The notes under the pieces are model-generated. The model did no database searches and was not told where the DNA came from. It saw only the letters and a list, made by a program, of their open reading frames with translations. Positions 11,473-44,320 of a DNA stretch of 64,000 bases are shown piece by piece (the first letter of the stretch is position 1; each line of letters opens with the position of its first letter). Position numbers and translations under genes: made by a program. The stretch lies in the IMG/VR virus record IMGVR_UViG_3300021387_000147. One strand, 5' to 3'. Origin of the DNA: a virus (Duplodnaviria; Caudoviricetes).

Positions 11473-12114
11473 ATGAGTGAACCTAAATTGCCATCATGGA
11501 TGAATTATTCTGACTATGAAGATATTATGCATTATCTTCGTCTTTTTGGAGAAATAAAACCTTATTATTTGAAAGCTGAAGATGTATTTAATGCTGAACA
11601 AGAAGTCATGAAAAGAAAGATGGATGATGGTTTAAGACTTATTGACGTTGCTAAAGAAATGATTTGGAGCTATAAATATAAGGAAAGATGGCATCAATTA
11701 CCAAAGGATGAAAATATGGATTTAACAGAAGCAAAACAAGTATTAACAGACAATGGTTATCTGTTAAAAGAAAATACAAATGAATTGACTAAACAAGAAA
11801 AATATGCATTATTATACTTGTTATTAAAAGAACAAGGTGTAAAGTTAGTTGCAAATTTTAAAGATAGTGTAATTGATGACCAAGAAATTGATTTTGTTAT
11901 TGATAACAAATATCCAGCAAGTATCAAGAATGGTCAATTTGGTGGTATGAGTGATGATTTAGCTGATGATCCAGATACAATCTATTATGCAGTTTGGTTC
12001 TCTGATGATGAAGATGATTATAGAGAAGAAACCTATGATATAAACGAAATCATAGAATACGTTAAAGCTGGAAAATGGAATCAGTTCGTTAAAGAAGAAT
12101 TATTAAGTTGGTAA
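11473..12114 (+). CDS. hypothetical protein with internal MDLTEAKQVLTDNGY peptide
   Basis: AGGAG RBS; CATAAATA at 11450; peptide begins at ATG 11716. Confidence 0.75.
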   Translation: MSEPKLPSWMNYSDYEDIMHYLRLFGEIKPYYLKAEDVFNAEQEVMKRKMDDGLRLIDVAKEMIWSYKYKERWHQLPKDENMDLTEAKQVLTDNGYLLKENTNELTKQEKYALLYLLLKEQGVKLVANFKDSVIDDQEIDFVIDNKYPASIKNGQFGGMSDDLADDPDTIYYAVWFSDDEDDYREETYDINEIIEYVKAGKWNQFVKEELLSW

Positions 12115-12124
12115 GGAATAAAGT

Positions 12125-12673
12125 ATGAATTTAAATGAAGCAAAACAAATCCTAAAGAATGCTGGCTATATCATTGAAGATACTGAAACCAATGATGAAG
12201 AATATGATGCATTATATAATGAATGGGATAAAAAATGGGGTTCAGATCCAGCTATAAATACTCTTATTAAGAAAATGCATAAAGTTAGTAATAAGCGTAT
12301 GGATTTAAAAGATAAGATTGACAACGCAAAGAAGTTCAATTCTAATATTGATAGAATGAAGAAAGATGCAGTCAATATTTTCAAGCAAGCATTTCATGAA
12401 GATGAAGTGACTGACAATGGAGATGGTACGTATACAATAGTTCCTATGAGTGAATATGATATTGAAGCTATCTATAAGTGGGATGATAATGATACTTTGT
12501 CTTGTAAATTTAATTATTCAGACAATGTATTGACATTCAAGCATCTCAGCAAACACTTGAAATATGATCCTAAGGGTGGACCTTGGCAGGAAGGTCAATG
12601 GTCAGGCGATGAAGCACTTGAAAACTTCATTTCAGACTTGGCATTTGAATATCAAAATGCAATGAGTGTATAA
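12125..12673 (+). CDS. MNLNEAKQ-leader protein (putative internal head protein)
   Basis: N-terminal 18 aa shared with 12685 and nearly with 27449. Confidence 0.7.
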   Translation: MNLNEAKQILKNAGYIIEDTETNDEEYDALYNEWDKKWGSDPAINTLIKKMHKVSNKRMDLKDKIDNAKKFNSNIDRMKKDAVNIFKQAFHEDEVTDNGDGTYTIVPMSEYDIEAIYKWDDNDTLSCKFNYSDNVLTFKHLSKHLKYDPKGGPWQEGQWSGDEALENFISDLAFEYQNAMSV

Positions 12674-12684
12674 AAGGTTATAAT

Positions 12685-12969
12685 ATGAATTTAAATGAAG
12701 CAAAACAGATTTTAAAGAATGCTGGATATATCATTGAAAGATATGATCTTGACTATGATTCAGTAAATTCTTCTTTTGATGAAGAAAAACGTCTTGAAAA
12801 GTTTGGTGAATATCTATATGAAGTAAGAGAATTATTATATCGTAAAGGCTTCAGTAGAGGTAAACAAGCTGATAATTATGATGAATTACATGATATAGCA
12901 CATAGATGTTGTAGATTAGGTAAATCTATTGAAGACTGTGCTAAAGAAATAATTTTTACAATAAAATAA
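12685..12969 (+). CDS. MNLNEAKQ-leader protein (putative internal head protein)
   Basis: First 18 aa identical to 12125. Confidence 0.7.
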   Translation: MNLNEAKQILKNAGYIIERYDLDYDSVNSSFDEEKRLEKFGEYLYEVRELLYRKGFSRGKQADNYDELHDIAHRCCRLGKSIEDCAKEIIFTIK

Positions 12970-12970
12970 A

Positions 12971-12998
12971 AAGAGGACTTTTAGTCCTCTTATAAATA
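12971..12998 (+). terminator. hairpin immediately followed by TATAAATA late-type promoter
   Basis: AAGAGGACT-TTT-AGTCCTCTT then TATAAATA at 12991-12998. Confidence 0.65.
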
Positions 12999-13007
12999 TG
13001 GTTAGAT

Positions 13008-13763
13008 ATGAGTGAACGTGAAGAATATACAGCAGAAACATACCCAAGTTTTGGTAAGAAATATAACGGTGAAAAAGCTATCATTAGTTTAACATCTTGG
13101 AAAGCTCGCATAAATACAGTTTCAAAAACTCTGTATAGCCTATTAACACAGTGTCCTGGTTTTCATATAGTTCTTGTGTTATCAGAAGAAGAATTTCCAA
13201 AGAAAATGAATGCTTTACCTAAGAATTTAAAATTATTAGTTGATAATGAATTAATTGAAATTTTTTGGGTATATAAGAACTATAAAGCATTTAAAAAAGT
13301 TCTTTTTACAATGAATAAGTATAAAGACGTTCCAATTATTTCTGCAGATGATGATTTAATTTATATTAAAAATTATGCAGATTTTTTATATAATAAATGG
13401 AAAGTATTAAATACTTATTGCATAGGTTTATCATCATCATACTATAAAAAAACAAATAATTTATGGATAGCTGGATTATGGGGATATGCACAATTATTTC
13501 CACCACATTTTATAGATTATTTAGATTTTAATATAATAAAACAAATTACAAATTTAGGTTGCATTGATGATGATACATTTTATGATATTTATAGACAAAA
13601 ATTTAATATAAATGCATTTAGTTTTCAAATACAATTTAATAAAAATAATTTTATTATTAATAATAATGTTAATCAAAATAATTGTATTACAAATCAACGT
13701 ATAAATCATAAATTAAATGATAAAAAAATATATGAGGGTTTATTAAATGTTAATAATCGGTAA
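13008..13763 (+). CDS. GT-A fold glycosyltransferase
   Basis: IISLTSW..RI and IISADDDLIY (DxD) motifs. Confidence 0.75.
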   Translation: MSEREEYTAETYPSFGKKYNGEKAIISLTSWKARINTVSKTLYSLLTQCPGFHIVLVLSEEEFPKKMNALPKNLKLLVDNELIEIFWVYKNYKAFKKVLFTMNKYKDVPIISADDDLIYIKNYADFLYNKWKVLNTYCIGLSSSYYKKTNNLWIAGLWGYAQLFPPHFIDYLDFNIIKQITNLGCIDDDTFYDIYRQKFNINAFSFQIQFNKNNFIINNNVNQNNCITNQRINHKLNDKKIYEGLLNVNNR

Positions 13764-14283
13764 TAATTGTTGTGGAGCAGAAATTTATAAAAGTGTAATA
13801 AAACAGCAATATAATAATCCATTTATTTGGTGTAGAACTGATATTATATCATTAGCAAAATATTGGAATAATATAAATTTTAAAAATATTGACATTTTTA
13901 ATGAAAATAAATTATTAGGATTTTGGCATATATTAATAGATAATAAATGTGATTTACGATTTAGACATCATAAATTTGATCCTAAAGCTAAAATACCAAT
14001 AATAATTCAACCAACTGATACACAAGACGCTGAAATACGTTATTGTAAAATTTGGGAATTATTAGTAAATGACTATAACAAAAGATTAAATCGAATGGAT
14101 TTAAATGAAAAACCAATCTTCGTATTTTATGAAGATTGGCAAGATGGTCCAGAAAAATTAGAAGAGCTTAAAAAATATACAGACAGAATAATTATTATAC
14201 CAAAAATAAAAGGATGTGGTGTAGTAAAAACAGTTAGATTAAAAGCAGATTATATAAAAAAAGAATTAGAAAAATTTAAATAA
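13747..14283 (+). CDS. DUF1919-like protein
   Basis: IIGNNCCGA..Y......NNPFIW, R..RM. Confidence 0.65.
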   Translation: MLIIGNNCCGAEIYKSVIKQQYNNPFIWCRTDIISLAKYWNNINFKNIDIFNENKLLGFWHILIDNKCDLRFRHHKFDPKAKIPIIIQPTDTQDAEIRYCKIWELLVNDYNKRLNRMDLNEKPIFVFYEDWQDGPEKLEELKKYTDRIIIIPKIKGCGVVKTVRLKADYIKKELEKFK

Positions 14284-14869
14284 TCTTATTTTCTATGATA
14301 TAATCAGCAACAGTCCCAACATATTGAGATTTTGGATGTATAATTTTTAAATTTAAATTTGAAAATAATTTAGAATCAATATTATGTTTTGTTGCCCATA
14401 TAATTTCATATTTAAAATTTTTATCATTTAATTTTTGTAAAATTTCAATAGAATTATCATGTCGAACTGTATCAACTGTTGAATATGTATCATCATCTAC
14501 TATTAAAAATATAGGTTTTTCTTTTGTTTCAAACATTCTTTTGCATCGATTTTTATATTTTTCAAGCGCATATTCCCATGGTTTATAATAATAAACATCT
14601 ACAAAATTTTTAATTGGTTTAATAGCTTTTTTATCATATAAAATATGAATATATCTTATTATAATTTTTGAATCGATTATAATATCTATACCTTTTTTAG
14701 GTGTTTTATCAGGAAAATCGATTTTATCAAAATTTATATTATCCCAATTTAACATTAAACATAAAAATGAATCTGCTGGTATTAAATTCCACATAAATGG
14801 ATTATTATACATCATATTCATTTTTTTATATAAAAAACCACTAGCACAATTATTACAAATTATTTGCAT
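14276..14869 (-). CDS. DUF1919-like protein
   Basis: IICNNCASGFLY.....NNPFMW. Confidence 0.65.
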   Translation of the reverse strand: MQIICNNCASGFLYKKMNMMYNNPFMWNLIPADSFLCLMLNWDNINFDKIDFPDKTPKKGIDIIIDSKIIIRYIHILYDKKAIKPIKNFVDVYYYKPWEYALEKYKNRCKRMFETKEKPIFLIVDDDTYSTVDTVRHDNSIEILQKLNDKNFKYEIIWATKHNIDSKLFSNLNLKIIHPKSQYVGTVADYIIENKII

Positions 14870-16350
14870 ATTTTAATTTCATCTAAAATTATTTTACATA
14901 ATTTATTTTCATGTTCATAATTATTTATATGAAAATTTTGTGATACTGCATAATGTTCATAATCTGGTAAATTTATAAAATTTGTACTATGAGGTTTATC
15001 ATTAATAATTATCCATTCCATTCTTCTTTGTTTTGCTAAACAACCATAATAGAAGTCATCATGTTTTGTATCAATAATAGCTTGTGTAAGTTTATAATTT
15101 TTAAAACAGCCTGGAGGAAATAGGATTCCACTTCCGCCACCACCAAATACAATATTTTCTCTAAAGAAATTATTAAATGAGACTATATAATCTTTATCTT
15201 TTTCCCATAGTCCATACAAAATATCTGCATAATTTCTATAATAAACACATCCATCATCTGCAGTAATAATTGGCACATCAGGATATTTGTCCATAGTTGG
15301 CAACATCTTCTTAAATGAATATGTATTTTCCTTAACCCACAATAATTCAAAATATCCATTATAAAGTAATGACCTCAAATTTTCAGGTAATTCCTTTTCT
15401 TTTTGAGGAAATTCATCTTCTGATAATACCAATACAATATGATACCCAGGACACTGAGTAATTAATGAATTCAATGTATAATATACACTTCCAATACGCT
15501 TCTTCCAAGAAGTCATTGAAATAATTGCTTTTTCACCATTGTATTTCTTTATCTTGCTTGCATCTTCTGTATAATTCAAATAAAGCTTATACAAATCTTC
15601 TTGCTTACAATAAACCCAACCTTTATCTTTTATACAGAATTGATTAAATGGAATTGGTCTAACTGTATTATGCAAATTCCAAGTCATAAATTCACTTTGT
15701 AGAACTTGTTGAGACATTGGAAATACTTTAGGTTTAAATTCATTCTTAAACATATTCAATGCAAAAGAATAAACTGTCTGATCTAGACGTTCAATTTCAT
15801 TTGTTCCTAAAGTCTTTAATAAATTAAATACTGTATTATCAATATGCTTTATTTTATCAGTATTCTTTTCAATACGGATAGTTCCTTGATATAGGCCTTT
15901 ATAATCAAAGTTATATCCATTAGCTTCCATAAAGCCAATACATCTATTTGTATTAGCAGCAGGATAATTTCTAAATCTCATCCATGCAAGATATTCTACA
16001 TCTATTCTGTCTCTTTCTGGATGGATATTTAGACCAAGTTCACAATCAGACTTCATAAAGTCATCATATAATTTACGTAATGATTTATTGATTTGAACTG
16101 AACCATCTAGATAAATGCAAACAGGAGTAGTTGCATAATTGAATAGATTAAATCTTACTTTATAACATTTCTCAAATACAGAAAGACCATCCAGAGAATG
16201 GTCTACAATAACATTCCAAACATTTGATTTTAGATTTTCATCATCGGTAATATAAATGTATTCACAATTAGGATCTATTTCTTTTGGGTCTCGCATAATT
16301 TCATAATTATTGAAATTATACATCAATATACTATATAATTTTTCACTCAT
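14860..16350 (-). CDS. two-domain glycosyltransferase (DUF616-like plus GT-A paralog of 13008)
   Basis: YITDD, IYLDGS, HPERD, RLDQ then KKYNGEKAIISMTSW...ITADD. Confidence 0.75.
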   Translation of the reverse strand: MSEKLYSILMYNFNNYEIMRDPKEIDPNCEYIYITDDENLKSNVWNVIVDHSLDGLSVFEKCYKVRFNLFNYATTPVCIYLDGSVQINKSLRKLYDDFMKSDCELGLNIHPERDRIDVEYLAWMRFRNYPAANTNRCIGFMEANGYNFDYKGLYQGTIRIEKNTDKIKHIDNTVFNLLKTLGTNEIERLDQTVYSFALNMFKNEFKPKVFPMSQQVLQSEFMTWNLHNTVRPIPFNQFCIKDKGWVYCKQEDLYKLYLNYTEDASKIKKYNGEKAIISMTSWKKRIGSVYYTLNSLITQCPGYHIVLVLSEDEFPQKEKELPENLRSLLYNGYFELLWVKENTYSFKKMLPTMDKYPDVPIITADDGCVYYRNYADILYGLWEKDKDYIVSFNNFFRENIVFGGGGSGILFPPGCFKNYKLTQAIIDTKHDDFYYGCLAKQRRMEWIIINDKPHSTNFINLPDYEHYAVSQNFHINNYEHENKLCKIILDEIKICK

Positions 16351-16360
16351 ATCTTATATA

Positions 16361-16573
16361 TTACCTTGTACAATATATTTTGCATTTACAATGTGGACAC
16401 CATGTTTGAATGACTTTATACATAGTGCACCAATCTTTTTCATCTTGCATACGTCTTTCTTCAGGTTTTACATAATGCCATTCATTAGGTCCTGCCATAA
16501 AGACAGTTTTACAATGTTTACATTGAAATGCTTGTTTTTCAAATTCTTTAATATCTTTTGGAAATAAACTCAT
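16361..16573 (-). CDS. small zinc-binding protein
   Basis: CKHC...CPHC. Confidence 0.65.
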   Translation of the reverse strand: MSLFPKDIKEFEKQAFQCKHCKTVFMAGPNEWHYVKPEERRMQDEKDWCTMYKVIQTWCPHCKCKIYCTR

Positions 16574-17188
16574 ATTTTACCTTACATAAAAATCCATGTT
16601 CCAGCATCTAGACGTTCTGTTGCTTCTTCTATAGATTTGCCTTCATCATAAAACTGTTTTAAATCATCACCAAAATCAAAATCATTATAAATGCTTTCTT
16701 TTAAATCTTCAAAAGACCAATTTTTAAATTGTTCACATTCATTAAGATTTTGTAATACAGCTGTTTCATATTCTGAAAAAGTCATATTTACCCATTATCA
16801 GGTTGAATTTTTACATCAATTTTTAGACCATGTTCTCCACAAGAATGGCACCAACTAGCGATATTAGCAATATCTTGAGCTTTTAATGTTTTTGTATCAT
16901 AGATTTTAACATCTTGTGGGTCAAAATCTTCTGGAGTCATATCCTCTATTTCATCTCTATCATATTCATCTTCTGCATAACTAATTATTGCTATCTTTGC
17001 CATCTTTATCCTCTGCTATATTGAAAGGTTCTATATTACGATTATATAAGGCTCTAATTTGGTCAGAATCATCAATCAATTTAGAAGCTATTTGAAGATC
17101 AGGTAAAATCTGTATAAAATGCCACATATCAGACTTTTCTATCATTCTCTTTTGAAAATCTTTTTCTTGTTTAATTGATAATTCTAAA

Positions 17189-17548
17189 TTAGTCATGCCT
17201 ATAATCCCAAAGAAATCCTTTTGAACCTTCGTTTTCTTTTATTTGTTTAATGATATTCTTGACTAATTTTATTTCTTCTGGAGTTGCATCACAACCAGCA
17301 TCACCTATATTATCATACTCATATTTAATATCTAATGAAATACAATTATTTTTGATAATAGGCTTTATTTCAAAAGTCACTTCAATAGAATACCATTCAC
17401 AATCATCAGTTCTATTCTTTTGGATAAAGCCTAAAACTAAATCATTATCTTCTATAGAATCTTTAGTTAATTTATCTAATCTTAAAGTTGAATTTTTAAG
17501 CATTAAATTGATAGATTTTATTACTTCATTGAATTTTTCACTAGTCAT
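17189..17548 (-). CDS. hypothetical protein
   Basis: Coupled ORF. Confidence 0.6.
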   Translation of the reverse strand: MTSEKFNEVIKSINLMLKNSTLRLDKLTKDSIEDNDLVLGFIQKNRTDDCEWYSIEVTFEIKPIIKNNCISLDIKYEYDNIGDAGCDATPEEIKLVKNIIKQIKENEGSKGFLWDYRHD

Positions 17549-17825
17549 TCTTTTCCTCTATCTTACGTGTTTCTTCCATAATGACTTTGTATATACGTCT
17601 AATTGATTCTTCACTATAAGGACATTTCGTAAGCTTAGCTACTGTAACAATATCATTTAGAATAAAATTTTCTCTATCTTCATCAATAATCTTTAGTCCT
17701 TCTTTCTTTTTGAGTTTGCCAATTTCTTTAGCATAAGAACCTCTACGATTCAATCCAGATAGAATTTCACAATCTATTTGAGTCACACATGCACGTAATT
17801 CGTTAATTATATTATTACTAGTCAT
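17541..17825 (-). CDS. chorismate mutase, AroQ/type II
   Basis: ELR....ID..I...L.RR.....IG.LK......I.D.DRE pattern. Confidence 0.8.
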   Translation of the reverse strand: MTSNNIINELRACVTQIDCEILSGLNRRGSYAKEIGKLKKKEGLKIIDEDRENFILNDIVTVAKLTKCPYSEESIRRIYKVIMEETRKIEEKND

Positions 17826-18136
17826 AATCTATTATCCACTATACCTAATTCTTTAAATGCTTCTAACATATCATCAACAGAATATGTTATAAGTGTCGCA
17901 AGTTTCCAAATATGTTTGCTACCATCAGAATATATTGCATCTTCAAATAAACTCGCATAATACTTACATGCATCAGGAAAACGTTCGTGATATGGACAAT
18001 CACGACTTAAATGAAGCTTCTTTACTGAACCATCTTCATTAAACAAACGTTTCTTAATAATTTCATTCTTTTTCAAATCTTCAATGTGATTAAAATCTAC
18101 AGATGGTCCGTTTGCATATAATTCAAATGTTTTCAT
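17822..18136 (-). CDS. hypothetical protein
   Basis: Coupled ORF. Confidence 0.6.
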   Translation of the reverse strand: MKTFELYANGPSVDFNHIEDLKKNEIIKKRLFNEDGSVKKLHLSRDCPYHERFPDACKYYASLFEDAIYSDGSKHIWKLATLITYSVDDMLEAFKELGIVDNRL

Positions 18137-19004
18137 TAGACTTTACCTTATCACTAGTCATCTACATATCCTTTTAAATCAATTACAAGTTTCTTAATTT
18201 CAGCTTTAGACAATATCTCTTTTAGATAAATTTCTGATCCATATCTTGGATTAACATTTTTAAAATTTTCAATAGTAGCTGCAGCACCTTGCTTAAAAGG
18301 ATATTTTATTGCTTCTGTAACATCGTCTGTTAGATAGTCATTTGGACTATTAGCATAAGAGGTCATTTTAAAATACTTATTCATGTATTTTAAGACATAT
18401 ACACTTTGGTGTTTTTCAAATAACATTATAATACCTTTGCTTCTTTAAATTGCCATTCAACTAAATTTCTATATGAGTAATGTTCTTTTTCGACTAAAAC
18501 ATTATTGTTAACAATTTCACCTAATACACAAACATGACCATATCCTTTATATTCATGCCTTAATTTAGATGGAAATTTATGAATAGCATCTTTAGCATCT
18601 TTTGCTTCTACAATAAAAGAATCAGTCAAGCTAGGTATTCCTTCCATACCTTGATCTAAAAAATACCAACAAATTAAATACTTTTTCATTAGACTTTACC
18701 CATATCCTTTTCTAAATAGTTTACAATATTCTGAACTGATGCTGAAGTCACATTCTTATAATTTGTTGCAATACGTCTCTGATTTGGATAAAAGATTCTC
18801 CATTGTTCTTCTTGCAAAATGATTTCATAAATGTGTCTTCCATTTCTATAGACTTTTACACCAGCATAATTTTCTGTTTGTCCAACATACGTATCTGTTG
18901 AAATAAAATAAAGTGCTTTTAATTGCAATTTTTCTCTAATTTGTTTAGCCAATTCATGGACTAAATCTACTTGTTGTGTTGTTATCATGTGAGTTTCCAT
19001 ATTT

Positions 19005-19412
19005 TTACCAACTTATCCAAAAACCAAAATCTTCTTCTTCCCAAGTATTACCAAATCCATTTCTTACTGTATATTTAGTTTTATCATCTTTAATAGTAAA
19101 TCCTTCGGCTTTAAGTCTATCTTTTACACGATATGAAATTACATCATTAAATACATAAGATTCATCATAATATAATGACCTGCTTCCAGATTTTGCTTCA
19201 TTTGCAATCAATTTCTTTAACATTTTATAATGACGTTCATCTTCTTTATATTCTTTTTCTATTAATTTATCAAGTCTTTCTTTATTCTTTTTTAATGTTT
19301 TTGGTGACACCATATTAGAAGCATCTTTTGCGTTAAAAGATACATCTTGTTTATTTCTATATAAAAATAAACTAATCATACCAAAAACAAATAAAATTGC
19401 TATAAGTATCAT
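19005..19412 (-). CDS. membrane-anchored hypothetical protein
   Basis: N-terminal TM segment. Confidence 0.65.
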   Translation of the reverse strand: MILIAILFVFGMISLFLYRNKQDVSFNAKDASNMVSPKTLKKNKERLDKLIEKEYKEDERHYKMLKKLIANEAKSGSRSLYYDESYVFNDVISYRVKDRLKAEGFTIKDDKTKYTVRNGFGNTWEEEDFGFWISW

Positions 19413-27095: not shown

Positions 27096-27449
27096 CTACC
27101 TGTAATTCTTCACAGATTCATTTGTTGGACAAATATTCTTAATGATGAACTGCATTGCAGGATCATAGTCAGTATGTTCATTGTAGAATGCTCTTTCATC
27201 GCCGCCTGCTTCAACATAAAGCATCGGGTCTTCGTCTTCATCAAATTGTTCTAGGGTTACCTTTGCCACATTATTCATGAACTTGACCGTGATGCTGTTT
27301 TCATAACCTTTAATTTTAAGATCATAACCAGTCTTTGGTGCCTCTACCTTTAGGTATCTGTAAAAGTCATACAGTCCAGAATACATTGATGTGTATTCAA
27401 CAAGATACCCAGCATTCTTCAAGATCTGTTTTGCTTCATTTAAATTCAT
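27096..27449 (-). CDS. MNLNEAKQ-leader protein
   Basis: Start moved to ATG 27449 (AAGG RBS): MNLNEAKQILKNAGYLVE. Confidence 0.75.
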   Translation of the reverse strand: MNLNEAKQILKNAGYLVEYTSMYSGLYDFYRYLKVEAPKTGYDLKIKGYENSITVKFMNNVAKVTLEQFDEDEDPMLYVEAGGDERAFYNEHTDYDPAMQFIIKNICPTNESVKNYR

Positions 27450-27457
27450 GTTATACC

Positions 27458-27943
27458 TTATGCTTCGTAATCTTCCATTGTTGAGTAAATCCAATTATAG
27501 ACTTCTTCAATATTTTTATCTACTCTAGTCAATTTGAATTTTTTAGCTTCAATTACTCCATTATCTTCTAAAGATACTTGAATAAAACCAGCTTCATCAA
27601 AATACTTTACAACAAACATTAAACTATTAAAGAAATACTCTACTGGCTGGCATGCTCTTTTTAAATCATAATCATAAGCATGACGTTTCCAATTCATTAA
27701 GTATTCATCAAACTTTTCTTCCAAACCAGTAAAGAAACTTTTAATGTTATAATTCTGTGCATTTAGAACTTTCTTTTCTACTGAATTGTCATAAACACGA
27801 TCGATTGTATCATACATTTTCTTTTTAGCTTTCTTAGTATTTTGTCTTGACAAATCATAAAGCTCATCATCTAATGTTTCAGTATCTTCTGCAATGATAT
27901 AACCATGTTCAATCAATTCTTGTTTAGCTTCATTTAAATCCAT
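27458..27943 (-). CDS. MDLNEAKQ-leader protein
   Basis: AGGAG RBS; MDLNEAKQELIEHGYIIAEDTET. Confidence 0.75.
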   Translation of the reverse strand: MDLNEAKQELIEHGYIIAEDTETLDDELYDLSRQNTKKAKKKMYDTIDRVYDNSVEKKVLNAQNYNIKSFFTGLEEKFDEYLMNWKRHAYDYDLKRACQPVEYFFNSLMFVVKYFDEAGFIQVSLEDNGVIEAKKFKLTRVDKNIEEVYNWIYSTMEDYEA

Positions 27944-27959: not shown

Positions 27960-27999
27960 TATTTATATAAAAGAAAAGACGCTTAAGTCTTAAGCGTCT
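27960..27999 (-). promoter_or_regulatory. terminator hairpin followed by TATAAATA late-type promoter
   Basis: AGACGCTTAA-N3-TTAAGCGTCT+TTT (27977-27999); TATAAATA at 27960-27967. Confidence 0.7.
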
Positions 28000-33608: not shown

Positions 33609-34865
33609 TTACATGCGGAATGCAAAGTCAGTTTCATTCTTGACACGCCAATCAATAGCGCGCTGCAAGAACTCACGATAAACTTCACTCTTACCCATGA
33701 ACTTACCTGCACTGTCACTAATCTTGCAGACAGGAATTCCATTCACTTCGGTGAGCTTAATCACCTGATTCATTGCCTTAAAATGACCAGTATCATTCAG
33801 CAACCAAGTTCCAATTCCAAATGCAATATTGCAACGACCCTTAAAGTGTGCAGTAATCTTTGCGGCACGTTCAAAATCCAAACTATCACTGAAGAGCAAA
33901 GTCTTTGTCTTCGGATCAATGCCCAGCTTCTGATAGTGAGCAATCATCTTTTCACCCCATTCAATAGGGTCACCACTGTCATGGCGAAGACCACCGAACA
34001 ACGTTGCAAACTTGTCAGTAAAGTCCTTCAAGAAGCAATCAGTCGTAATGCAGTCAGTCAAATAAATACCGTTCTTAACACCGTATTCCTTTGTCCATGC
34101 CTTCATCATATAGTAGTTCGACCAAGCAGGGTTGTGGAAAGGATAACCCTGACCAACAACTTCAACAGCTTCGTGAGCCATCGTTCCCTTAGGACTCCAA
34201 CCAAAGAGGAAGGAGAAATAAACATTCGAAGTACCAACAAACAGACGGCGAAGGATTTCATACTTCTGCATCCATTCATACATAGTGCGGAGCATCCATT
34301 CCTGGAATTCCTTACAGAAGCGACGACGAGTACCAAATTCAGAGAATGCGGCCATATCAATCTTACCATCGACAAGGTCCTGCAACTTCTGAAGGAAAAT
34401 CTTCTTAGCGTCTTCAATAATTGCATTCTGTTCAGCCTTAGTGTAATGTAGACGGAACCAAACTTCCGATACAATTGCCATTACAGGAACTTCGTGGTAA
34501 GAAACGTCAATATTATATCCACGGAAGTGAATTTCAGGCTGTTTGATGGCTTCATCCATCTTACAAGTAATTTCATTACGGTCGACTGTATAACGCTTGA
34601 GGAAACCAACGTAGTCATGGACCATAAAGTTAATCATAGCGAAATGATCCAACTCCCACTGAGTATAACGGAGCCTTGCATACAAATCAATCTGATAATT
34701 GATTTCGTCAATCATTTCCTGAGTAAAAATACGCTGGGGATCACGATTCTTATACGTCCATTCGACCTTAGCATCGTGGAACTGATGCACAAACATCTGT
34801 CCCATCGTATACTTATAAAAATCGTTATCACTCAAATGTGTAATAATTTGCGGTAAATGTGCCAT
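33609..34865 (-). CDS. pncB: nicotinate phosphoribosyltransferase
   Basis: D.DFYKYTM, EFGTRRR, GTSNV, GTMAHE, RHDSGDP, FSDSLD, FGIGT, KISDS.GK. Confidence 0.95.
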   Translation of the reverse strand: MAHLPQIITHLSDNDFYKYTMGQMFVHQFHDAKVEWTYKNRDPQRIFTQEMIDEINYQIDLYARLRYTQWELDHFAMINFMVHDYVGFLKRYTVDRNEITCKMDEAIKQPEIHFRGYNIDVSYHEVPVMAIVSEVWFRLHYTKAEQNAIIEDAKKIFLQKLQDLVDGKIDMAAFSEFGTRRRFCKEFQEWMLRTMYEWMQKYEILRRLFVGTSNVYFSFLFGWSPKGTMAHEAVEVVGQGYPFHNPAWSNYYMMKAWTKEYGVKNGIYLTDCITTDCFLKDFTDKFATLFGGLRHDSGDPIEWGEKMIAHYQKLGIDPKTKTLLFSDSLDFERAAKITAHFKGRCNIAFGIGTWLLNDTGHFKAMNQVIKLTEVNGIPVCKISDSAGKFMGKSEVYREFLQRAIDWRVKNETDFAFRM

Positions 34866-34895
34866 TTTTATTGTCCTTTTGTTTAGTTTTCCTTT

Positions 34896-35153: not shown

Positions 35154-35170
35154 TCTAAACCTCTTTTTGT

Positions 35171-35428: not shown

Positions 35429-35431
35429 TCT

Positions 35432-35513
35432 ATAACCTCTTTTTGAATACAAGTATAATATAGTAAATTTTATGGCCCTTGGTAACCCCTTTTTATGTAA
35501 AATTTTATTTACA
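35432..35513 (-). promoter_or_regulatory. boxed promoter cassette 3
   Basis: Box 35496-35513; GGG-TTACCA-17-TATATT; AAAAAGAGG. Confidence 0.85.
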
Positions 35514-35605
35514 TTTAGCCCTTCCAGGATGAATTCTGGGCTCTTTTTTGTCCCGGGCATGTAATTATACGGCAAATATAAAAAGAGAGCCCTGGAAGCG
35601 CTCTC
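35514..35605. repeat. ~90 bp GC-rich double-hairpin element, copy A
   Basis: Aligns by eye with 53112-53202; includes a terminator-like hairpin. Confidence 0.7.
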
Positions 35606-35628
35606 TTGAGTCAAATTTTATGTTCTTT

Positions 35629-36246: not shown

Positions 36247-36602
36247 TATCTAATACTTTCTTTAGAGCATCAATATCTGCTTCTGGATTGATACATGTTG
36301 AATTTGGCTTATTTTTAATTTCATTATACAAGTCATAATCATAATACTTACTATCTTCATTAAAGATAACCTTGTATAAATCACACTTGTAAGCATAACT
36401 ATCAGTCTTATTTCTCTTTGACTTTTTAATCATGTAATTCAAAGCGTCTTTAAGAGTTTTCTTATTTAATGCTTTGATATACATTGCACAATGTTCATAT
36501 TGACCACATGCAAGTAATTTACCAATATCATGTAATACTTTCATATCAGGCTTCATGAAAAATTCAACGATAGCCTCAATTGATTCTTTAATTGTCATTT
36601 TA

Positions 36603-37076
36603 TCACCTCTTGTTATAAACTTCTAGAACTTTTGTTTTATATTTATTAAGCAACATTGCTAATACAATTTCATACATTGCTTCACTAAACGAATATTCAT
36701 GTTTATTAGCATCATAATCTCCAGAATAATCTAGAAAATCATCAGAATACGAATAGTGTCCTTTAAAGTCAATTTCACCTTCATATCCAAGCTTAGGAAT
36801 TTTCACATCATTTTCCCATAAATCATTACACAAGAAAATGTATTCATCATCTGCAAAATCAATATCCCATTCATGCACATCATACAATTTAAAGATCGCA
36901 TCAAATAATTCTCTATCAGACATTAAAGTTCCGAAGATTTTGACTGAATAACTAATCAACGTATCAATATCTTCTTTAAGATTTGCATATTCATTATTAG
37001 ATGCTTCATCTAAAATTTCTTGTGCATATTCTGGATCAAAACATAGATCTTTTTCATCAAAACCATTGTTATACAT
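36603..37076 (-). CDS. acidic hypothetical protein
   Basis: Coupled ORF. Confidence 0.65.
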   Translation of the reverse strand: MYNNGFDEKDLCFDPEYAQEILDEASNNEYANLKEDIDTLISYSVKIFGTLMSDRELFDAIFKLYDVHEWDIDFADDEYIFLCNDLWENDVKIPKLGYEGEIDFKGHYSYSDDFLDYSGDYDANKHEYSFSEAMYEIVLAMLLNKYKTKVLEVYNKR

Positions 37077-38068
37077 TATGCTACCTTTAATTCATTAGAA
37101 ACTTTTTTATAGCGAAGAACATACTTCATTTTAACAGGAGTATTACGATAATTAAATGTTTTACTTGTTTTTTCTACTTTATCTAAAACATACTGACCAG
37201 CAAATTTGATTTTATTACCCTTTCCAACGAAGAAATTGTAAATATCATCTTTAGCTGTCTTATAACGCCAATTTTCAGAGTACTCTTCATTCGTATACAT
37301 ATCCATTGTCGACAAATCATTAGCATATTCATTATACCAATATCTACCTTGACCCTTAGCATTCCAATTGTTCATATCACGAGTCAAGAAAATCTGGCCA
37401 GGATATTTCTTTGTCAATTCCTTATCTGGATTTGTATTTTGAATAGAACCCTTTGTTAAATCATGACCATATTTCTTATAAAGAACTTCTACAATAGATT
37501 CTTTTCCTTTAGATGCCTTTCCCCAAGTTGGTGTCTGCAACAAAGTATTAAACAAATCAGACTTTGTAATGAATTCAAAATTATCTTTAATTCTAATCTT
37601 ATCACCTGAATTATATCTAATAAATCCAGGACGGTCATCCCAATTAAACTTCTTATGTTTAGCTACATGTTTACGAACGCATTGCAAGAATTTTTCAATA
37701 TCTTCCATTTTCTTTTCTATACCATGCGTCACATCTACACGGCAAATCTCAAAGTCATCGCGACCAATCATTGCCATCTTTTCAAAAATATCCAATTCAC
37801 GTTGCTTATCTGCTTCTTTCTGACGAGCATGGTGACCTTCATCAACTTCCAATCCAACATTGATTGCATCAAAAGTCAAATCAATTAGAGCCTTTCCATT
37901 ATCTCTCTTTACATAAGCCTGGAATGTTGGCTTCAAATCCCAAAATTTAAACCCCATTCTATCCATTAGACGGAGTTTAACCGTATTGATAACTTCTACT
38001 TCAAACTTCTTGTGGTCATGCTTATTTAGTTCTTCAGACCAATATAAATCTTTTTCATCAATTGTCAT
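37076..38068 (-). CDS. AbaSI/PvuRts1I-like endonuclease
   Basis: FQAYV.R......IDL.F..INVGLEVDEGHH....DKQRE.DI. Confidence 0.65.
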   Translation of the reverse strand: MTIDEKDLYWSEELNKHDHKKFEVEVINTVKLRLMDRMGFKFWDLKPTFQAYVKRDNGKALIDLTFDAINVGLEVDEGHHARQKEADKQRELDIFEKMAMIGRDDFEICRVDVTHGIEKKMEDIEKFLQCVRKHVAKHKKFNWDDRPGFIRYNSGDKIRIKDNFEFITKSDLFNTLLQTPTWGKASKGKESIVEVLYKKYGHDLTKGSIQNTNPDKELTKKYPGQIFLTRDMNNWNAKGQGRYWYNEYANDLSTMDMYTNEEYSENWRYKTAKDDIYNFFVGKGNKIKFAGQYVLDKVEKTSKTFNYRNTPVKMKYVLRYKKVSNELKVA

Positions 38069-38394
38069 TTCTTTAATTCCTTTGATATAGAGTCATCGTC
38101 AATGTAAATATATTCATCTAAATCTTCTTCAAACTTTCGCTTTCTAACTTCATACTTTTCAAGTGCTTCTATTAAACGCTTAGCATCCTCTATATTAGCG
38201 AATGCCACATAGTCAACCAATCCAGGAACTTCAATTTTATTACTTGACGAAAAATAATAACTAGATTCTTCGTAATATACTTTACGATATTCATCCCATG
38301 TAGCGCTATTCCAAAATATCCATCCCTTACGCTGAGGCATGTAATAAATTTGACCTTTATAGTCATATTTCTTTAATCGCCATTTAAATAACAT
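38065..38394 (-). CDS. hypothetical phage protein
   Basis: YYMPQRKGWIFW...IEDAKRLIE, similar to 21029. Confidence 0.65.
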   Translation of the reverse strand: MLFKWRLKKYDYKGQIYYMPQRKGWIFWNSATWDEYRKVYYEESSYYFSSSNKIEVPGLVDYVAFANIEDAKRLIEALEKYEVRKRKFEEDLDEYIYIDDDSISKELKK

Positions 38395-38726
38395 TTTAAA
38401 TTCCTCTAGTTATGAGGCTGATGCTCATCCCAGCAAGCCCATTTATTTGGACTATTTTTGTGTCCTTCATAGCGATGCTTACGTTCAACCTCAATCGCAT
38501 TTCTAATTTTGTCTGTGTTAATTAAACCCCATGCATAATGGTGCGCCAACATCTTTCTTAAAACTGCAATAGTTTTGTCTAAATCCAACTGTTCTTTGTC
38601 ATCATTCGTTCTTCGTTTCAACTTATACATGTGAGCAATTTCTTCTCGAATCTGCCAATAATCTTTAGCAAACTTAACAAGAGAAGCCGGATCTTTAAAA
38701 TCTGAATTTAACAAAACTGTACTCAT

Positions 38727-39080
38727 TTAATTTTTAGGTCCTTCAACTACTTCAACAACTTTATCCTTATTTTCCCATTCGTATGCTTTTTTTTCAAATT
38801 CCTTCATGGCCTTATACGCTTCATCCAAAGTCTTATAATCAGACTTTCCATTAAAACCAAAATCATCAATCGGGTACCAATTCAAAGGACATATACCTTC
38901 CCAATCAACACTATCATATTGCCAACACTGAACCTGAAAAATTCCAAGATTTGTCTTAACAATTCTTGTCGTCCACAGTTTATACTTATGATTATGTCGA
39001 TAAGTTAAAACAGGAATAGTAATAAACAATCCAATTGCTATAACAAGAATAATAGTAGCAAGAGCATGACAAGTAATCAT
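38727..39080 (-). CDS. membrane-anchored hypothetical protein
   Basis: AGGAG RBS; N-terminal TM. Confidence 0.65.
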   Translation of the reverse strand: MITCHALATIILVIAIGLFITIPVLTYRHNHKYKLWTTRIVKTNLGIFQVQCWQYDSVDWEGICPLNWYPIDDFGFNGKSDYKTLDEAYKAMKEFEKKAYEWENKDKVVEVVEGPKN

Positions 39081-39249
39081 TTTAAAATCTCCTTTTATTA
39101 AAGCCAGTAAAAAAGTACAAACAAATGTTGTTTTGTTTCATATACAATACTCTGTATATCAGCCCTGTTTATGCGACGTTGTTTTACATAATCACAAAGA
39201 TCATCATGACTTAAAAAACTGGCACTAACTAATTTCATAAAATCTCCTT

Positions 39250-39555
39250 TTACTTGACCTTCTTAAAAAAGTCTTCACGTTCTTCTTTAGTCATGTATTT
39301 AAGCGGAATAAGAGGATTTGGACCATATTTTCCATTATAACGCTTTTGACGAATTTCCATATCAATTTCTGTTCCACGAACAAACTTTGCAAAATTAACT
39401 CGCCAAGCAACATAAAGAGGAATATACGTATTCAACAACTGAACTCGCGTTTCCATATCAAGTGTCCTACGAATTGCCTTAGAAAGAGCTTCCAAAAATT
39501 CAGCGGCCCTATAATAAGCCAAATAATATTGATATTCAAAGTTGTTCTTTCGCAT
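39250..39555 (-). CDS. hypothetical protein
   Basis: AAAATAAAAGAGG leader. Confidence 0.7.
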   Translation of the reverse strand: MRKNNFEYQYYLAYYRAAEFLEALSKAIRRTLDMETRVQLLNTYIPLYVAWRVNFAKFVRGTEIDMEIRQKRYNGKYGPNPLIPLKYMTKEEREDFFKKVK

Positions 39556-39577
39556 TGTATTTACCTCTTTTATTTTA

Positions 39578-39817
39578 TTAGTAACAAAGTTCCCAGTTGA
39601 GCCACTTTGCTAGGTGAGTATAAAGACGTTCCCAAGCTCGGTCATAACCATCGTTGCTATCATAATCGCTCAAATAGTCACGGCTAACCAATTTACCATT
39701 TTTGTAAAGGTTAATCTGGTCGGGGAATCGTTCAATTTCAAACGTTCCGCGGATTGTTTCAATCGTTTCGCCGTCTTTCAAATTTTTAAGATTTTCTGCC
39801 GTGATTTTTCTGTTCAT
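39578..39817 (-). CDS. hypothetical early protein
   Basis: First gene after promoter cassette 4. Confidence 0.75.
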   Translation of the reverse strand: MNRKITAENLKNLKDGETIETIRGTFEIERFPDQINLYKNGKLVSRDYLSDYDSNDGYDRAWERLYTHLAKWLNWELCY

Positions 39818-39821
39818 TGGT

Positions 39822-39955
39822 TACCTCTTTTATTTTAACAAGTAAAATATACTAATTTTGGATTCGTTTGTTAACCCTGTTTTTTGTAAAAAGAAGTTTA
39901 CATTGCATAAAAATAGGTGCTCTTTTAAGCACCCTTTTGTAAATTTAAATTTACT
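39822..39955 (-). promoter_or_regulatory. boxed promoter cassette 4
   Basis: Boxes 39885 and 39938 (1 mismatch); TTAACA-17-TATATT; conserved leader. Confidence 0.88.
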
Positions 39956-40505
39956 CAGCTTTTACATGTTTAAATCCAAGCGCTTTCGCTTCTTTTACTG
40001 TAATTGTATCGCCATCTTTATACAATTTCTTTTGTCCTTCTTCGTTAACTTCTCCACTTTTAAATGTAGATGCAGGAAGAGGATCTCCAGGATGGAATGT
40101 ATACATACAATCTCCAATTCCATCTTCTGGTCCAACAATCAAAATCGTATAATCAACTCTTTCACGCTGATCAGTCTTCATACAAAGCGATAAGAAACCA
40201 GTATTCTTAAAATCTCTGAAATGACAAACTGTATCATCAGTAAATCGATTAATATCCAACATACCATGATAACCAGGAATATCTTTTGTCTTAAATGCTT
40301 TACATCCAGGAGACAATACATTTTCAACATCAATCCATGGAGTCCAATTTGCAGTCATCAATCGATTTTCCATTTCATCAACAGTTTCACATTCTGTTGT
40401 AGAACCAATACCATTCTTCAATCTCTGTTGGAGACATTTCTTAAAGTAATCTGGCATGTTCTTCTTTGTATTCTGAATACAACTTCTTACATACTTGTTA
40501 ATCAT
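39951..40505 (-). CDS. hypothetical protein
   Basis: 184 aa ORF; stop codon lies inside a box. Confidence 0.75.
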   Translation of the reverse strand: MINKYVRSCIQNTKKNMPDYFKKCLQQRLKNGIGSTTECETVDEMENRLMTANWTPWIDVENVLSPGCKAFKTKDIPGYHGMLDINRFTDDTVCHFRDFKNTGFLSLCMKTDQRERVDYTILIVGPEDGIGDCMYTFHPGDPLPASTFKSGEVNEEGQKKLYKDGDTITVKEAKALGFKHVKAE

Positions 40506-43500
40506 GCTTTAGCCAACCTTTCAAAAAAGTCTTCATCTTCATTGATTTCTGTAATTTCTTTATTTTCAATCATCTTACAGACTTTCTTATAATTCTCATC
40601 AAACTTCTGTAGAGTTGGCAATTCACCAAAACCATCTCTCAATGAAGCATTCTTAAATGGAATCATCTTAATCTGCACATTCTTCTTATATTCATTGAAT
40701 GTAGATAATGCAGTCTGTAAAAATTCCATTGACTTATCAATTACTTCACTTGCCATTTCTACATAACAATCTGTAGATAATAACTTAATTCCAGCCTTAG
40801 ATTCCAACTTATCACTTTCACTTTCAAATTTAAATGTAATCTTTGTAAAGTCTATTTGAAGTGGATCACACGTGTTATAATAACGCTGTTGCTTATTAGG
40901 CTGAATTCCATAGACTTCTAATTCCTTAGTTGTCAAATTAGCATGAATGAAATAATTTGCTCGACAACCATATCTATCCTTATTGACTTCTCTCAAGATA
41001 ACTTCATAAGGAGATGCTTCAAATTGAATTGTAATTGCATCATTAGTCAAAAATTCAGCTTTATTCTTATCTAAGCCTGATGCATATTTCTTACTTAGAC
41101 GTTCAACAACGTCAATCATCTTTAACTTTAATTCAGTTTCTTTCTTAAGGTCCGCAAATTTAATTTTATCTACGTCCTTTATTTTATCAGCGATTTTTGA
41201 AAAATCAACCATCATTTTTTGTTTCCTTAAAAGAAATAGTTTTTATCTTCATATCTTTATAATACTTCTTAAATGACTTTACTGCAGTATCAATCAAATT
41301 ATGCATTTGGTCAAAGTGCATACACAAGAAAGTAAAACATTTATCTAACTGTTCAGGAGTACAATCACTTCCCATATATTGAACTTCACCAGTAGAAAAT
41401 TGAATATTGGCTAAATCAAAATTATATTTATCTCTCCATTCTGCAAAATCAGAATCAGAAATGAATTTATACTTTATACAAGATACTTCTGTATCTACTT
41501 CATCATGTAAATTAGAAGTAATTGCCTTAAACTCAAACAAGTAAGATGGTAAATATATTTTAACTTTATCGTAGTCAAATAGACTGCACATTGAAGTTTT
41601 CAATCTAAATTCATATTCTTGTCCATCATCAACAGCAACAGCAAGACCATCTTTCTTATCAAAATACTTCTTGATAAGCATATCACACAAATCAAGAGCA
41701 AACTTTTCTCTTTTATTGCGTTCTTTTAAAACGTCATAATTATAACTCATCCTATTGTTTCCTTACCAATAATCATTTCAATTTCTTTGCGCTTTATTCC
41801 ATTCCTTACTTTCTTACAATAATCAGCAAGAAATTCTGGAGTCAATAAAGTCACATTGATTTTCATATATTCACTTACTCCAATTCTATCTAATGGATCT
41901 TCCTCATCTGGATCAATGTAAAACTTAGTTCCAAGATCTGCATATACAGTTCTTAATTCAATAAGATATGATTCATTATATTTTTCCAAACAAGGTAATG
42001 TGAAATATGTTCCATAACCATCACTACAATCAATAAAACCTGCTTCCAAAATCATTTTTTTGATTTCTTTCTTAGGCGGTTTCTTAATCAAAGTAAATTC
42101 TTCCATATTAACCCCAATTTGGAACGCTCAAACCAACGGTCTTGATTTGTGCAAGTTTAAAAAGACGAATAATTCTCTGTGCATATCTTGTAAAGAATGT
42201 TTCATCAATACAATTATATTTAACCAAGAACATATCAGAGACAATGCTTTCATCTATAGACAAATTACATTGATCTGACTTTGGAACTCTACGCACAGCA
42301 AAAATCACTTTCTTATTAGCTAATACTTCTCCATTCTGACCAATTCTCAAAATTGGAAGTGTATGACTAATTTGTGGAAGCATGTAATAACATTCTTGAC
42401 TATTAAATTCAAAGCCAGCATCTTCTGCCATCTTTACAACATCTTCACGCTTCCTTTCTTCAATAAAATCCAAGTCAGGCTCTTTTCCACGAAAATCAAG
42501 AATATCTACTTGAGTAAATCCAAGCTCAAGTTCAAAATCTTTATCTACGTCTTTAAATAAATTATCCATTTTCATTTTCTACTTCCGCGTTGAGGCTTAA
42601 AAGTGTTAAATCAAGTTCTTTCTTAAATCTATTCAATCTCTTTGCATAACCACAAAGAAAATCTTCGTCAACTACCTTAAATTCTCTCTTTTCATTTGTA
42701 TTCCAAGATATATCCCATTGATTACGCTTCCAATTATTTCTTGCATGTGAAATTGTCACTTGTCCATAATTAGGATTGTTTTTATCATAAATCTTGTTTG
42801 GATATATCTCAAAAACATGCGCAATATAAATATACTTTGTTCCAATCTCAATTGGAGCATTATAATCTAATAATGCTGGAACAGTCCATTGGTCATCTTT
42901 TCTACCATAAGATGGATATAATGCTCTAACAAAACCACAATCTTCTAATAGTTTTATCATTTCTTTCTTTGTTTTCCTTTGTATCTTATCAAACAAAGGA
43001 ATTTTACACCATTCACCTACCTTTAAATCTAACATTGCTTCTTATACTCCGATTTAAACGTTCCACTGACGATTGCCTTAATTCTTGCTTGTCGCTGCAT
43101 TTCTTCCAATGCTTGCTCATCTTCCAAATCACCATTCAACGAAACAATCGCCAAATCCTTTTCTTTCATTTTTCGAGTAAACCAATCTTTATAATCAACG
43201 AAAAATTCTTCTTTAAAATCAAGATTGTTTATATACGACATTGCTTTCACATTCCAACCATCAAAAACAGCACGTTTAACATTCGAATATGGGTCTTTAA
43301 CAACTTGGAAATTAAACTTTGTCGCATAACAACAATGATCATCATAAACTTCAATCAATACTTGATTTCCAACAGGTCCACAAAATGGCGCAATAGTGCA
43401 TTGATAATGATTTGACGCTCCACTATATTCCCAACATACAAAACCAATCGCTTCTAACTTCTTAGCGATTTCCTTTGCCTCTGGCCCTTTACGTCTAGGA

Positions 43501-43547
43501 TATTCTTTCAAAAATTCTATTTCGTTTTTTCCAATTTTTAATTGCAT
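40502..43547 (-). other. six tandem distantly related ORFs (43029, 42562, 42108, 41747, 41205, 40502)
   Basis: Four share a K..h.K.hE.xGF-like N-terminal motif; all end in K/R-rich helices. Confidence 0.55.
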
Positions 43548-43555
43548 ACAAATTT

Positions 43556-43580
43556 AAGCAGAGATTTCTCTCTGCTTTTG
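43556..43580. terminator. hairpin terminator
   Basis: AAGCAGAGA-TTTC-TCTCTGCTT. Confidence 0.6.
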
Positions 43581-43588
43581 TTTAAGTT

Positions 43589-43852
43589 TTACGAAACTGC
43601 TGGCTGATTGTTAATGTTCATGAACATACATGCCAAATCTTCTGTGTTAGAAATATCCCGACAAACGATGCGCTTGTGGTCATCAAAAACGTAGAATGCC
43701 GCATCATCCATGGAAGCCATCAAAGTGTCATAATGCTTTACGGTGTACTTTCGACCATTGTCGATAGTAATCTTGAAAGACAGCTTTCCTTCTTTTTGTG
43801 CTTTATTCCATTCATCGTTGATATAAGCCAATGCTTCTTGCATGTTTTTCAT
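43589..43852 (-). CDS. hypothetical early protein
   Basis: First gene after promoter cassette 5. Confidence 0.75.
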   Translation of the reverse strand: MKNMQEALAYINDEWNKAQKEGKLSFKITIDNGRKYTVKHYDTLMASMDDAAFYVFDDHKRIVCRDISNTEDLACMFMNINNQPAVS

Positions 43853-43855
43853 AGT

Positions 43856-44012
43856 GAACCTTCCTTTTAATTTTACTAATACAATATACCTATTTTATTT
43901 TCATCTGTCAACCCTTATTTTTGTAAAAAATTATTTACAATACCATTAAAAAAGCGCCCCGATTTCTTCGGAAGCGCTTTGAATTCAAATGTTATGTAAA
44001 TTTTATTTTACA
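43856..44012 (-). promoter_or_regulatory. boxed promoter cassette 5
   Basis: Boxes 43922 and 43995 flanking an AAAGCGC/GCGCTTT hairpin; TTGACA-17-TATATT. Confidence 0.88.
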
Positions 44013-44320
44013 ATATATCCATTTTTCTCTAGAACTTTCTTCGCTTCCTTTATCAAGTGTCTGTGTGTCTGACGGAATCCTTCATTAAAGTATTCTGATA
44101 GACCATCAGAAATTGTACCATTAGCATTTTCCAATTCCCATAGCGCATCAACATCCATATCTAGGACGTCAGCACAGAAATCAATGCAGTCATCTATTGA
44201 GACTGGAGCATCAAACTTCTTTACGTGCATAATATATTCTTGAATTGCATTATCAATTTCTGAAAATGTTCCTTCGTTAATCATGGTACTTTCCTTTATA
44301 TCTGTTTGTGTGAAACTCAT
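44003..44320 (-). CDS. late-type protein with C-terminal EAKKVLEKNGY peptide
   Basis: TATAAATA at 44337-44344; AGGAG RBS. Confidence 0.7.
   Translation of the reverse strand: MSFTQTDIKESTMINEGTFSEIDNAIQEYIMHVKKFDAPVSIDDCIDFCADVLDMDVDALWELENANGTISDGLSEYFNEGFRQTHRHLIKEAKKVLEKNGYIVK

Follow-up and report, generated by a model that had tools for sequence, protein, structure and literature searches.

Six Tagged Genes in the Window

The 64,000-nucleotide stretch analysed here, from IMG/VR virus record IMGVR_UViG_3300021387_000147 (Caudoviricetes), is called the window in what follows. Between positions 11,473 and 44,320 it encodes six otherwise unrelated small proteins that share one short peptide, termed the tag. 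The tag is 18–20 residues long and has the consensus M-N/D-L-N-E-A-K-Q-x-L-x-x-x-G-Y-(x)-h-x-E. A first-pass annotation had described it at the N-terminus of four proteins, inside a fifth and at the C-terminus of a sixth, and a six-frame scan recovers exactly these six copies. Their scores against a tag profile lie between 21.6 and 47.1 bits, compared to a best score of 11.3 bits in 20 shuffled windows, none of which reaches 20 bits. The features, as read from the sequence, are the following.

11450..11457, plus strand: CATAAATA, a near-consensus late-promoter box, 15 nucleotides before ATG 11473
11473..12114, plus strand: open reading frame of 213 amino acids, with the tag at residues 82-100
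11671..11678, plus strand: TATAAATA, 37 nucleotides before the internal ATG 11716, itself preceded by AAGGA
11716..11772, plus strand: tag copy MDLTEAKQVLTDNGYLLKE at the internal ATG 11716 (39.3 bits)
12125..12178, plus strand: tag copy MNLNEAKQILKNAGYIIE, start of gene 12125-12673 (182 amino acids; body pI 4.7; 47.1 bits)
12685..12738, plus strand: tag copy MNLNEAKQILKNAGYIIE, start of gene 12685-12969 (94 amino acids; 45.9 bits)
12972..12998, plus strand: hairpin AGAGGACT-TTT-AGTCCTCT, which closes the tagged-gene array and is followed by TATAAATA for the next gene
27396..27449, minus strand: tag copy MNLNEAKQILKNAGYLVE, start of gene 27096-27449 (117 amino acids; 44.7 bits)
27887..27943, minus strand: tag copy MDLNEAKQELIEHGYIIAE, start of gene 27458-27943 (161 amino acids; 41.0 bits)
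27960..27999, minus strand: perfect 11-bp hairpin and T-run (27977-27999), TATAAATA (27960-27967), then 16 nucleotides with AGGAG and ATG 27943
44003..44320, minus strand: gene of 105 amino acids whose C-terminal 17-18 residues (about 44006-44059) are the tag LIKEAKKVLEKNGYIVK (21.6 bits)
44337..44344, minus strand: TATAAATA, 16 nucleotides before ATG 44320, spaced as at 27943

The endings IIE, IIE, LVE, IAE and LKE, read directly from the window copies, are those originally reported; the C-terminal copy in 44003-44320 has no closing Glu and thus no [LI]-x-E. The open reading frame at 11473-12114 may be a fusion of an upstream body with a tagged one, or else a frame with two starts, and relatives of the body downstream of 11716 (the L007 copies) start at the Met of the tag.

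Selection on the Peptide

Three copies with the identical peptide MNLNEAKQILKNAGY differ at four codons, and all four differences are synonymous (CAA/CAG, ATC/ATT, CTA/TTA/TTG and GGC/GGA/GGG). In an aligned set of 37 tags from the window and its relatives, identity at codon positions 1, 2 and 3 is 0.67, 0.82 and 0.52 within the tag, compared to 0.28, 0.28 and 0.34 ten codons past it, and 37% of the codon pairs that encode the same residue use different codons. The synonymous differences and the codon-position pattern therefore indicate that the peptide is selected and not a DNA or RNA element, which bears out the earlier claim of selection. The converse explanation is that the conserved element is a nucleic acid, either an RNA at the 5′ end that serves translation initiation or regulation, or a recombination cassette by which genes are swapped, and that the peptide is incidental. 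Common 5′ ends could promote cassette exchange, and tagged genes do lie in tandem arrays, but position 3 is the least conserved codon position, the codons for shared residues differ as just described, and the sequences upstream of the tag copies are unlike each other. This explanation is highly unlikely.

Recent duplication of the tag was likewise considered, and it is ruled out by the synonymous divergence and the codon-position identities. Homogenisation of tags within a genome, which would suggest co-evolution with a genome-specific receptor, was also rejected: tag identity is 0.55 within genomes compared to 0.61 between genomes (permutation p=0.99).

Relatives and Portability

The window has no near match among 50,697 phage records, and megablast and tblastn searches of the phage collection gave no match for the tagged locus, a tagged protein, the 496-amino-acid neighbour or a two-tag protein described below. 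The nearest capsid protein in that collection to the one of this lineage is 33% identical. An exact-pattern scan of IMG/VR for the tag returned seven contigs, among them two complete genomes with terminal repeats, G001 (415,750 bp) and G002 (424,163 bp). The lineage has no cultured relative, and no paper describing this tag was found in the literature.

With residues 1-40 of 12125 as the query, a word-based search recovered the tag in metagenomes, attached to different bodies (P0004-P0009). The first-pass annotation had suggested a profile of the peptide as a probe for relatives, and such a profile (A4, 30 columns), run against 1.84 billion representatives, finds the tag in 409 protein clusters (50% identity) at E<=1e-3. 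Among the top 150 of these 409 clusters, to which the statistics on position and copy number refer, the tag starts at residue 1 in 136 representatives. The G001 genome has at least 21 N-terminally tagged genes among 661 predicted proteins, and the promoter comparisons within it are of 21 tagged with 640 other genes.

The bodies behind the tag are mutually dissimilar, belong to proteins of 90 to 585 amino acids and include ORFans, an SLT enzyme, a mimic of the capsid N-terminus and Cys-Gly repeat proteins. Portability of the tag, as first proposed for the window, thus holds in the window, in G001 and among the database matches. The six window proteins have no Pfam match at E<=1 and no PHROG family, and the sole notable family match of the set is that of the tail of 27943 to phrog_11046 “transcriptional regulator” (E 2.6e-5). 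Because all six bodies lack a family match, the accompanying idea of an anti-defence role is without support. Among the tagged bodies searched, the one family match is that of the SLT lytic transglycosylase cargo (Pfam, 6.5e-20), which has a further match to phrog_342 “internal virion protein with endolysin domain”. In addition, the bodies tend to be acidic. All six window bodies have a pI of 4.1-5.4, compared to a pI below 5.5 in 33% of window genes, and the tagged proteins of G001 have a median pI of 4.8, compared to 5.8 in the remainder of its proteome (p=0.017).

It could be argued that the six proteins are fast-diverging paralogues, in which the N-terminus is the last conserved part of a common fold rather than a portable tag. 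Short similarities beyond the tag would fit such an origin: EDTET-D-E is common to 12125, 27943 and P0003, and YLYL-LK-G follows the tag in both the 11716 body and three L007 proteins. However, the tag also precedes an SLT domain some 100 residues further along, a copied capsid N-terminus, Cys-Gly repeats and other dissimilar proteins across the size range given above, and identity drops to background level straight past the tag. Structure prediction points the same way, although with limited confidence. The AlphaFold2 model of gene 12125 (6 sequences) has a mean pLDDT of 50.6, and helix 3-12 is its only element worth mention, while in the G001 two-tag protein the tags are low-confidence helices beside a confident C-terminal helical bundle. 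In these two models, of which one is low in confidence throughout and the other over its tags, the tags appear packed neither on each other nor on the body. Common descent of the whole proteins is therefore unlikely. A structure search with the G001 two-tag model gave generic helical matches (Z<=6.3), and the ESM Atlas gave nothing usable for the 12125 body.

Late Promoters

In G001, TATAAATA precedes the scaffold-like, capsid and protease genes, and it is for this reason regarded as the late promoter of the lineage. The box lies directly upstream of 11 of the 21 tagged genes compared to 85 of the 640 others (p=3.6e-5), and when genes are assigned to TATAAATA units at the level of the operon, the figures are 19 of 21 and 165 of 640 (p=1.7e-9). 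The window as a whole is not enriched in TATAAATA, with 10 found and 11.7 expected, and what is informative is its placement upstream of genes and not its window-wide number. The first-pass annotation had noted promoter boxes ahead of three tagged loci, and these are indeed present as (C/T)ATAAATA at 11450, 27960 and 44337, which is 15, 16 and 16 nucleotides before the respective ATGs. The segment 27960-27999 reads as a late-promoter cassette within a long minus-strand array. Late-type expression of tagged genes, also claimed earlier, is thus predicted by the strong association of TATAAATA units with these genes in G001.

Several further observations concern promoters. In the segment 12972-13763, the TATAAATA that follows the hairpin at 12972..12998 lies 9 nucleotides before ATG 13008 and serves a late gene of 251 amino acids with no Pfam family. 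On the minus strand, a sigma-70-like early-type promoter, TTGACA-17-TATATT (43853-43920), stands upstream of the untagged gene 43589-43852, which is directly downstream of the late-promoted tagged gene 44003-44320, so that early units stand among late ones on the same strand. Across G001 (L014-L034), 26 genes have TATAAATA exactly 4 nucleotides before the ATG, a spacing that suggests leaderless late mRNAs. A second class has a spacing of 14-36 nucleotides together with a Shine-Dalgarno sequence.

The End of the Tag and the Head Protease

Past its Gly-Tyr, the tag has a short hydrophobic stretch followed by Glu, and this end takes the form [LI]-x-E in 31 of the 37 aligned tags. The motif falls at residue 18, 19 or 20 in 118 of 134 N-terminal representatives. 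The T4 head protease gp21 cleaves after L/I-x-E, and T4 propeptides are 10-20 residues long (PMC9026906, PMC5694885). Judged by its letters, the end of the tag matches this motif. Leaders read from the T4 genome (NC_000866) include MKTYQEFIAE of IPII and IPIII, MAKINELLRE of gp24, MLKEQLIAE of gp22 and MNEPQLLIE of gp21. Moreover, both complete relatives encode a Peptidase_S77 head protease (E 7e-29 in G001, E 8e-30 in G002) and a gp23-family capsid protein.

Further evidence connects the tag to the head in G001. First, tagged genes lie within the head module, on the flanks of the protease, scaffold and capsid genes (scaffold, capsid, protease and two-tag genes at 84658-90471). One gene, divergent from that of the protease, encodes a protein with two tandem tags, a second two-tag protein is encoded 1.2 kb beyond the first, and just upstream of the scaffold gene is a 90-amino-acid protein that ends in the tag-like EAMRIMREHGYRVKP. 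Second, the protease itself (G001 89806-90471) begins with MEAKKLLNE, followed by IAE and LNE, and EAKKLL is the helix of the tag, so that the protease carries half a tag. The pattern EA[KR]x[LIVF]L occurs in the first 14 residues solely of 13 tagged proteins and the protease among all G001 proteins, and it occurs elsewhere in that proteome 3 times. Third, the G001 gene 66419-67006 encodes a mimic of the capsid protein, in which the tag start is followed by a copy of capsid sequence (BLASTP E 4e-13). In the alignment, ...NGYKVLDE of the tag lies over ...LGSELLTE of the capsid protein, with strong identity from just past the Glu onward (DF..GVGAPLG.DQGIPHGGD). This part of the capsid protein contains no [LI]-x-E other than L-T-E, which is similar to the T4 site F-L-T-E|A.

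The two-tag head-module protein shares only a layout with T4 gp67, consisting of an M-x-x-L-x-E-A start, h-L-I-x-E and then an acidic run, and hhalign of the two-tag family against gp67 gives a non-significant probability of 4.5%, on the acidic run only. This protein also has CCGCGG and a Lys run. Elsewhere in G001, genes for Cys-Gly-repeat proteins that start with the tag stand on either side of a radical-SAM gene (CNNHCKFC). The radical-SAM/Cys-Gly and two-tag observations refer to G001 149833-151611 (L021:9833-11611) and 89048-89701 (L018:9048-9701). It seems that a radical-SAM/Cys-Gly system acts on tagged, putatively head-loaded proteins.

A Probable Capsid-Targeting Propeptide

The peptide is probably a capsid-targeting propeptide that acts like the capsid-targeting sequence (CTS) of T4, being longer and different in sequence, and is read by a T4-type head protease. 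Most likely it is used by a clade of uncultured giant T4-like gut phages with genomes of 0.4 Mb, on about 20 genes in each. In such a scheme, tagged proteins would be made late in infection from TATAAATA promoters. The tag, laid out as a short amphipathic helix (EAKQ-L-L), Gly-Tyr and the hydrophobic stretch, would then let them dock on the scaffold core while the prohead assembles. The gp21-like S77 protease would cut after the Glu of [LI]-x-E at residue 18-20, freeing interchangeable and mostly acidic cargo within the head, and this cargo would finally exit the head together with the DNA. Docking to the core, cleavage, packaging and ejection are all inferred. The kind of system is itself known, and what is new is the particular tag, its breadth, the multi-tag hub by the protease and the half-tag on the protease.

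The capsid-targeting role proposed in the first-pass annotation is upheld in part. The portability of the tag, its [LI]-x-E end, the late promoters, the S77 protease of the relatives, the sites in the head module, the half-tag on the protease and the Glu aligned in the capsid mimic speak for it, but the tag has no alignable similarity to the T4 leader MKTYQEFIAE beyond an aromatic residue ahead of [LI]-x-E, and the internal, tandem and C-terminal copies are left unexplained by a simple N-terminal leader. Other results weigh against this role as well. Six of the 37 aligned tags lack [LI]-x-E, and AlphaFold gives only low-confidence helices for the tag. The protease and capsid genes are known from the relatives G001 and G002 and not from the window. 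The capsid cut at L-T-E is itself a prediction from the motif, and HMMER aligns the T4 capsid cut to a point about 8 residues C-terminal of it. T4 has basic internal proteins, and the cargo here is acidic.

The forms with several copies belong on the same side of the balance, being unexplained by a simple leader. More than one tag copy is present in 37 of the 150 top representatives. There are tandem 33-residue tag repeats, such as the three in P0011, and P0013 and P0107 have four dispersed copies each. In P0015, P0019 and P0025 the order is tag-body-tag-body and the inner tag has no Met; the body behind the second, internal tag of P0025 is an ortholog of that of window gene 12685. C-terminal copies occur in P0047, in window gene 44003 and in the 90-amino-acid protein upstream of the G001 scaffold gene. 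Multiple cuts would make the tag-body-tag-body fusions polyproteins, and several “internal” matches in which the tag opens with a Met, like that at 11716, may be over-extended open reading frames. In addition, three small PHROG families of unknown function match tag segments of multi-tag proteins, phrog_10481 at its C-terminal end and phrog_2053 and phrog_15170 at their N-terminal ends, so that sequenced phages may also have proteins with tag-like ends.

Internal, tandem and C-terminal copies fit a general docking module, recognising a hub or itself, as well as they fit a leader. The main rival explanation is accordingly that the tag is a docking or oligomerisation module (helix-Gly-Tyr-strand) through which late proteins bind one another or some partner outside the capsid, for example a component of the tail or baseplate, a chaperone or a host protein, and that the head protease does not remove it. 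Besides the varied placement and repetition of the module, this explanation can call on a similar EAKxFLxxNGY repeat in an unrelated 2559-amino-acid protein, on a sub-threshold tail-completion match of a tagged 585-amino-acid protein and on the frequent occurrence of SLT domains on tails. However, it leaves unexplained the near-universal [LI]-x-E at residue 18-20, the alignment of the tag Glu with the predicted capsid cut, the half-tag on the head protease and the clustering by the protease and scaffold genes, and it is on the whole rather doubtful. Rather doubtful as well is an extension of the leader reading, in which the tag is also a self-recognising docking unit of a modular loading system. 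Head-core hubs with two to four tags would be encoded beside the protease, which has half a tag, and cargo with one tag at either end would join by tag-tag or tag-hub pairing and be freed by a cut after each [LI]-x-E. If this were true, the tag-body-tag-body fusions would act as polyproteins, and giant T4-like phages would have an encapsulin-like, reprogrammable payload of about 20 proteins, including radical-SAM/Cys-Gly substrates.

Comparison with Known Systems

In T4, the CTS is found on the internal proteins IPI, IPII and IPIII and on Alt (Mullaney & Black 1996; reviewed in PMC3012670, PMC9026906). The internal proteins of T-even phages are diverse and have only the CTS in common (PMC3012670), and Alt and gp21 of T4 also have C-terminal propeptides (PMC9026906). 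The tag resembles the CTS as a short N-terminal peptide on otherwise unrelated proteins of a T4-type phage, in its L/I-x-E end, which is the motif of the head protease (gp21, S77), in a length within the 10-20-residue range of T4 propeptides, and in an aromatic residue before [LI]-x-E (Y4...I8-A-E10 in T4, Y15...[LI]-x-E18-20 in the tag). This ending is the extent of its similarity to MKTYQEFIAE. Because an aromatic residue followed by h-I-x-E is the sole common feature, the tag is regarded as an analogue and not a homologue of the T4 CTS.

The two systems also differ in several respects. The tag has 18-20 residues compared to 10 in T4, tagged genes number about 20 in a 415-kb genome compared to 4 in T4, and tag copies are also tandem, internal or C-terminal. 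The cargo here is acidic. Tagged genes are also provided with TATAAATA boxes of their own, while no such box stands within 60 nucleotides of T4 ipII or ipIII. Finally, the function of the tag here is putative.

Giant phages related to phiKZ offer a second parallel. Inside their heads are numerous proteins, with diverged paralogues whose N-termini are conserved (SPN3US gp53 and gp54, phiKZ inner-body proteins), and a gp21-related protease removes N-termini by cutting after Glu, as is predicted for the tag (PMC5694885, PMC9026906). However, these phages are not of T4 type, and their propeptides mostly exceed 100 residues and have the motif S/A-x-E, while the tag is short and has the [LI]-x-E of T4.

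Two further comparisons are an analogy and a set of sequence look-alikes. The cargo-loading peptides of encapsulins attach to the shell protein itself and stay uncleaved. By analogy only, with no claim of homology, they are like the tag in being short, in standing at either terminus and in docking diverse cargo in a shell of the HK97 fold. The N-terminal helix-strand of HicA toxins and the PASTA-type “EAkklLeeaG” are sequence look-alikes with the pattern E-h-x-K-x-L-x-x-x-G-aromatic-x-h-h, as in the tag. HicA (PF07927) was rejected as an identity for the tag, since the six proteins have no Pfam match at the threshold given above and no Gly-Ser-His (GSH) after the tag. The tag thus differs from these look-alikes in having no GSH catalytic motif and nothing conserved past the strand.

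If the tag is a capsid address label, its profile singles out what an uncultured clade of 0.4-Mb gut phages probably injects, amounting to about 20 proteins per genome and more than 400 public protein clusters, almost none of which has a known function. Such proteins would act before any others of the phage in a freshly infected cell, and would hence be candidate factors of host takeover and counter-defence, and the tag would be a ready handle for packaging foreign proteins. The T4 principle of diverse cargo, one leader and one protease motif would then persist with a longer and quite different leader, linked to the N-terminus of the protease.

Other Features of the Window

The window has 32% G+C, and its genes are mainly small and on the minus strand. 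Genes with recognisable products include the following, among other accessory genes of large phages.

6398-7582, minus strand: RtcB ligase
33609-34865, minus strand: nicotinate phosphoribosyltransferase
37076-38068, minus strand: protein with a PvuRts1I-like N-terminal domain
54998-56107, minus strand: T4 Rnl1-type RNA ligase

The open reading frame of 399 amino acids at 44686-45885 on the minus strand is presumably a CCA-adding enzyme or tRNA nucleotidyltransferase, by our own reading of its sequence without a family library.

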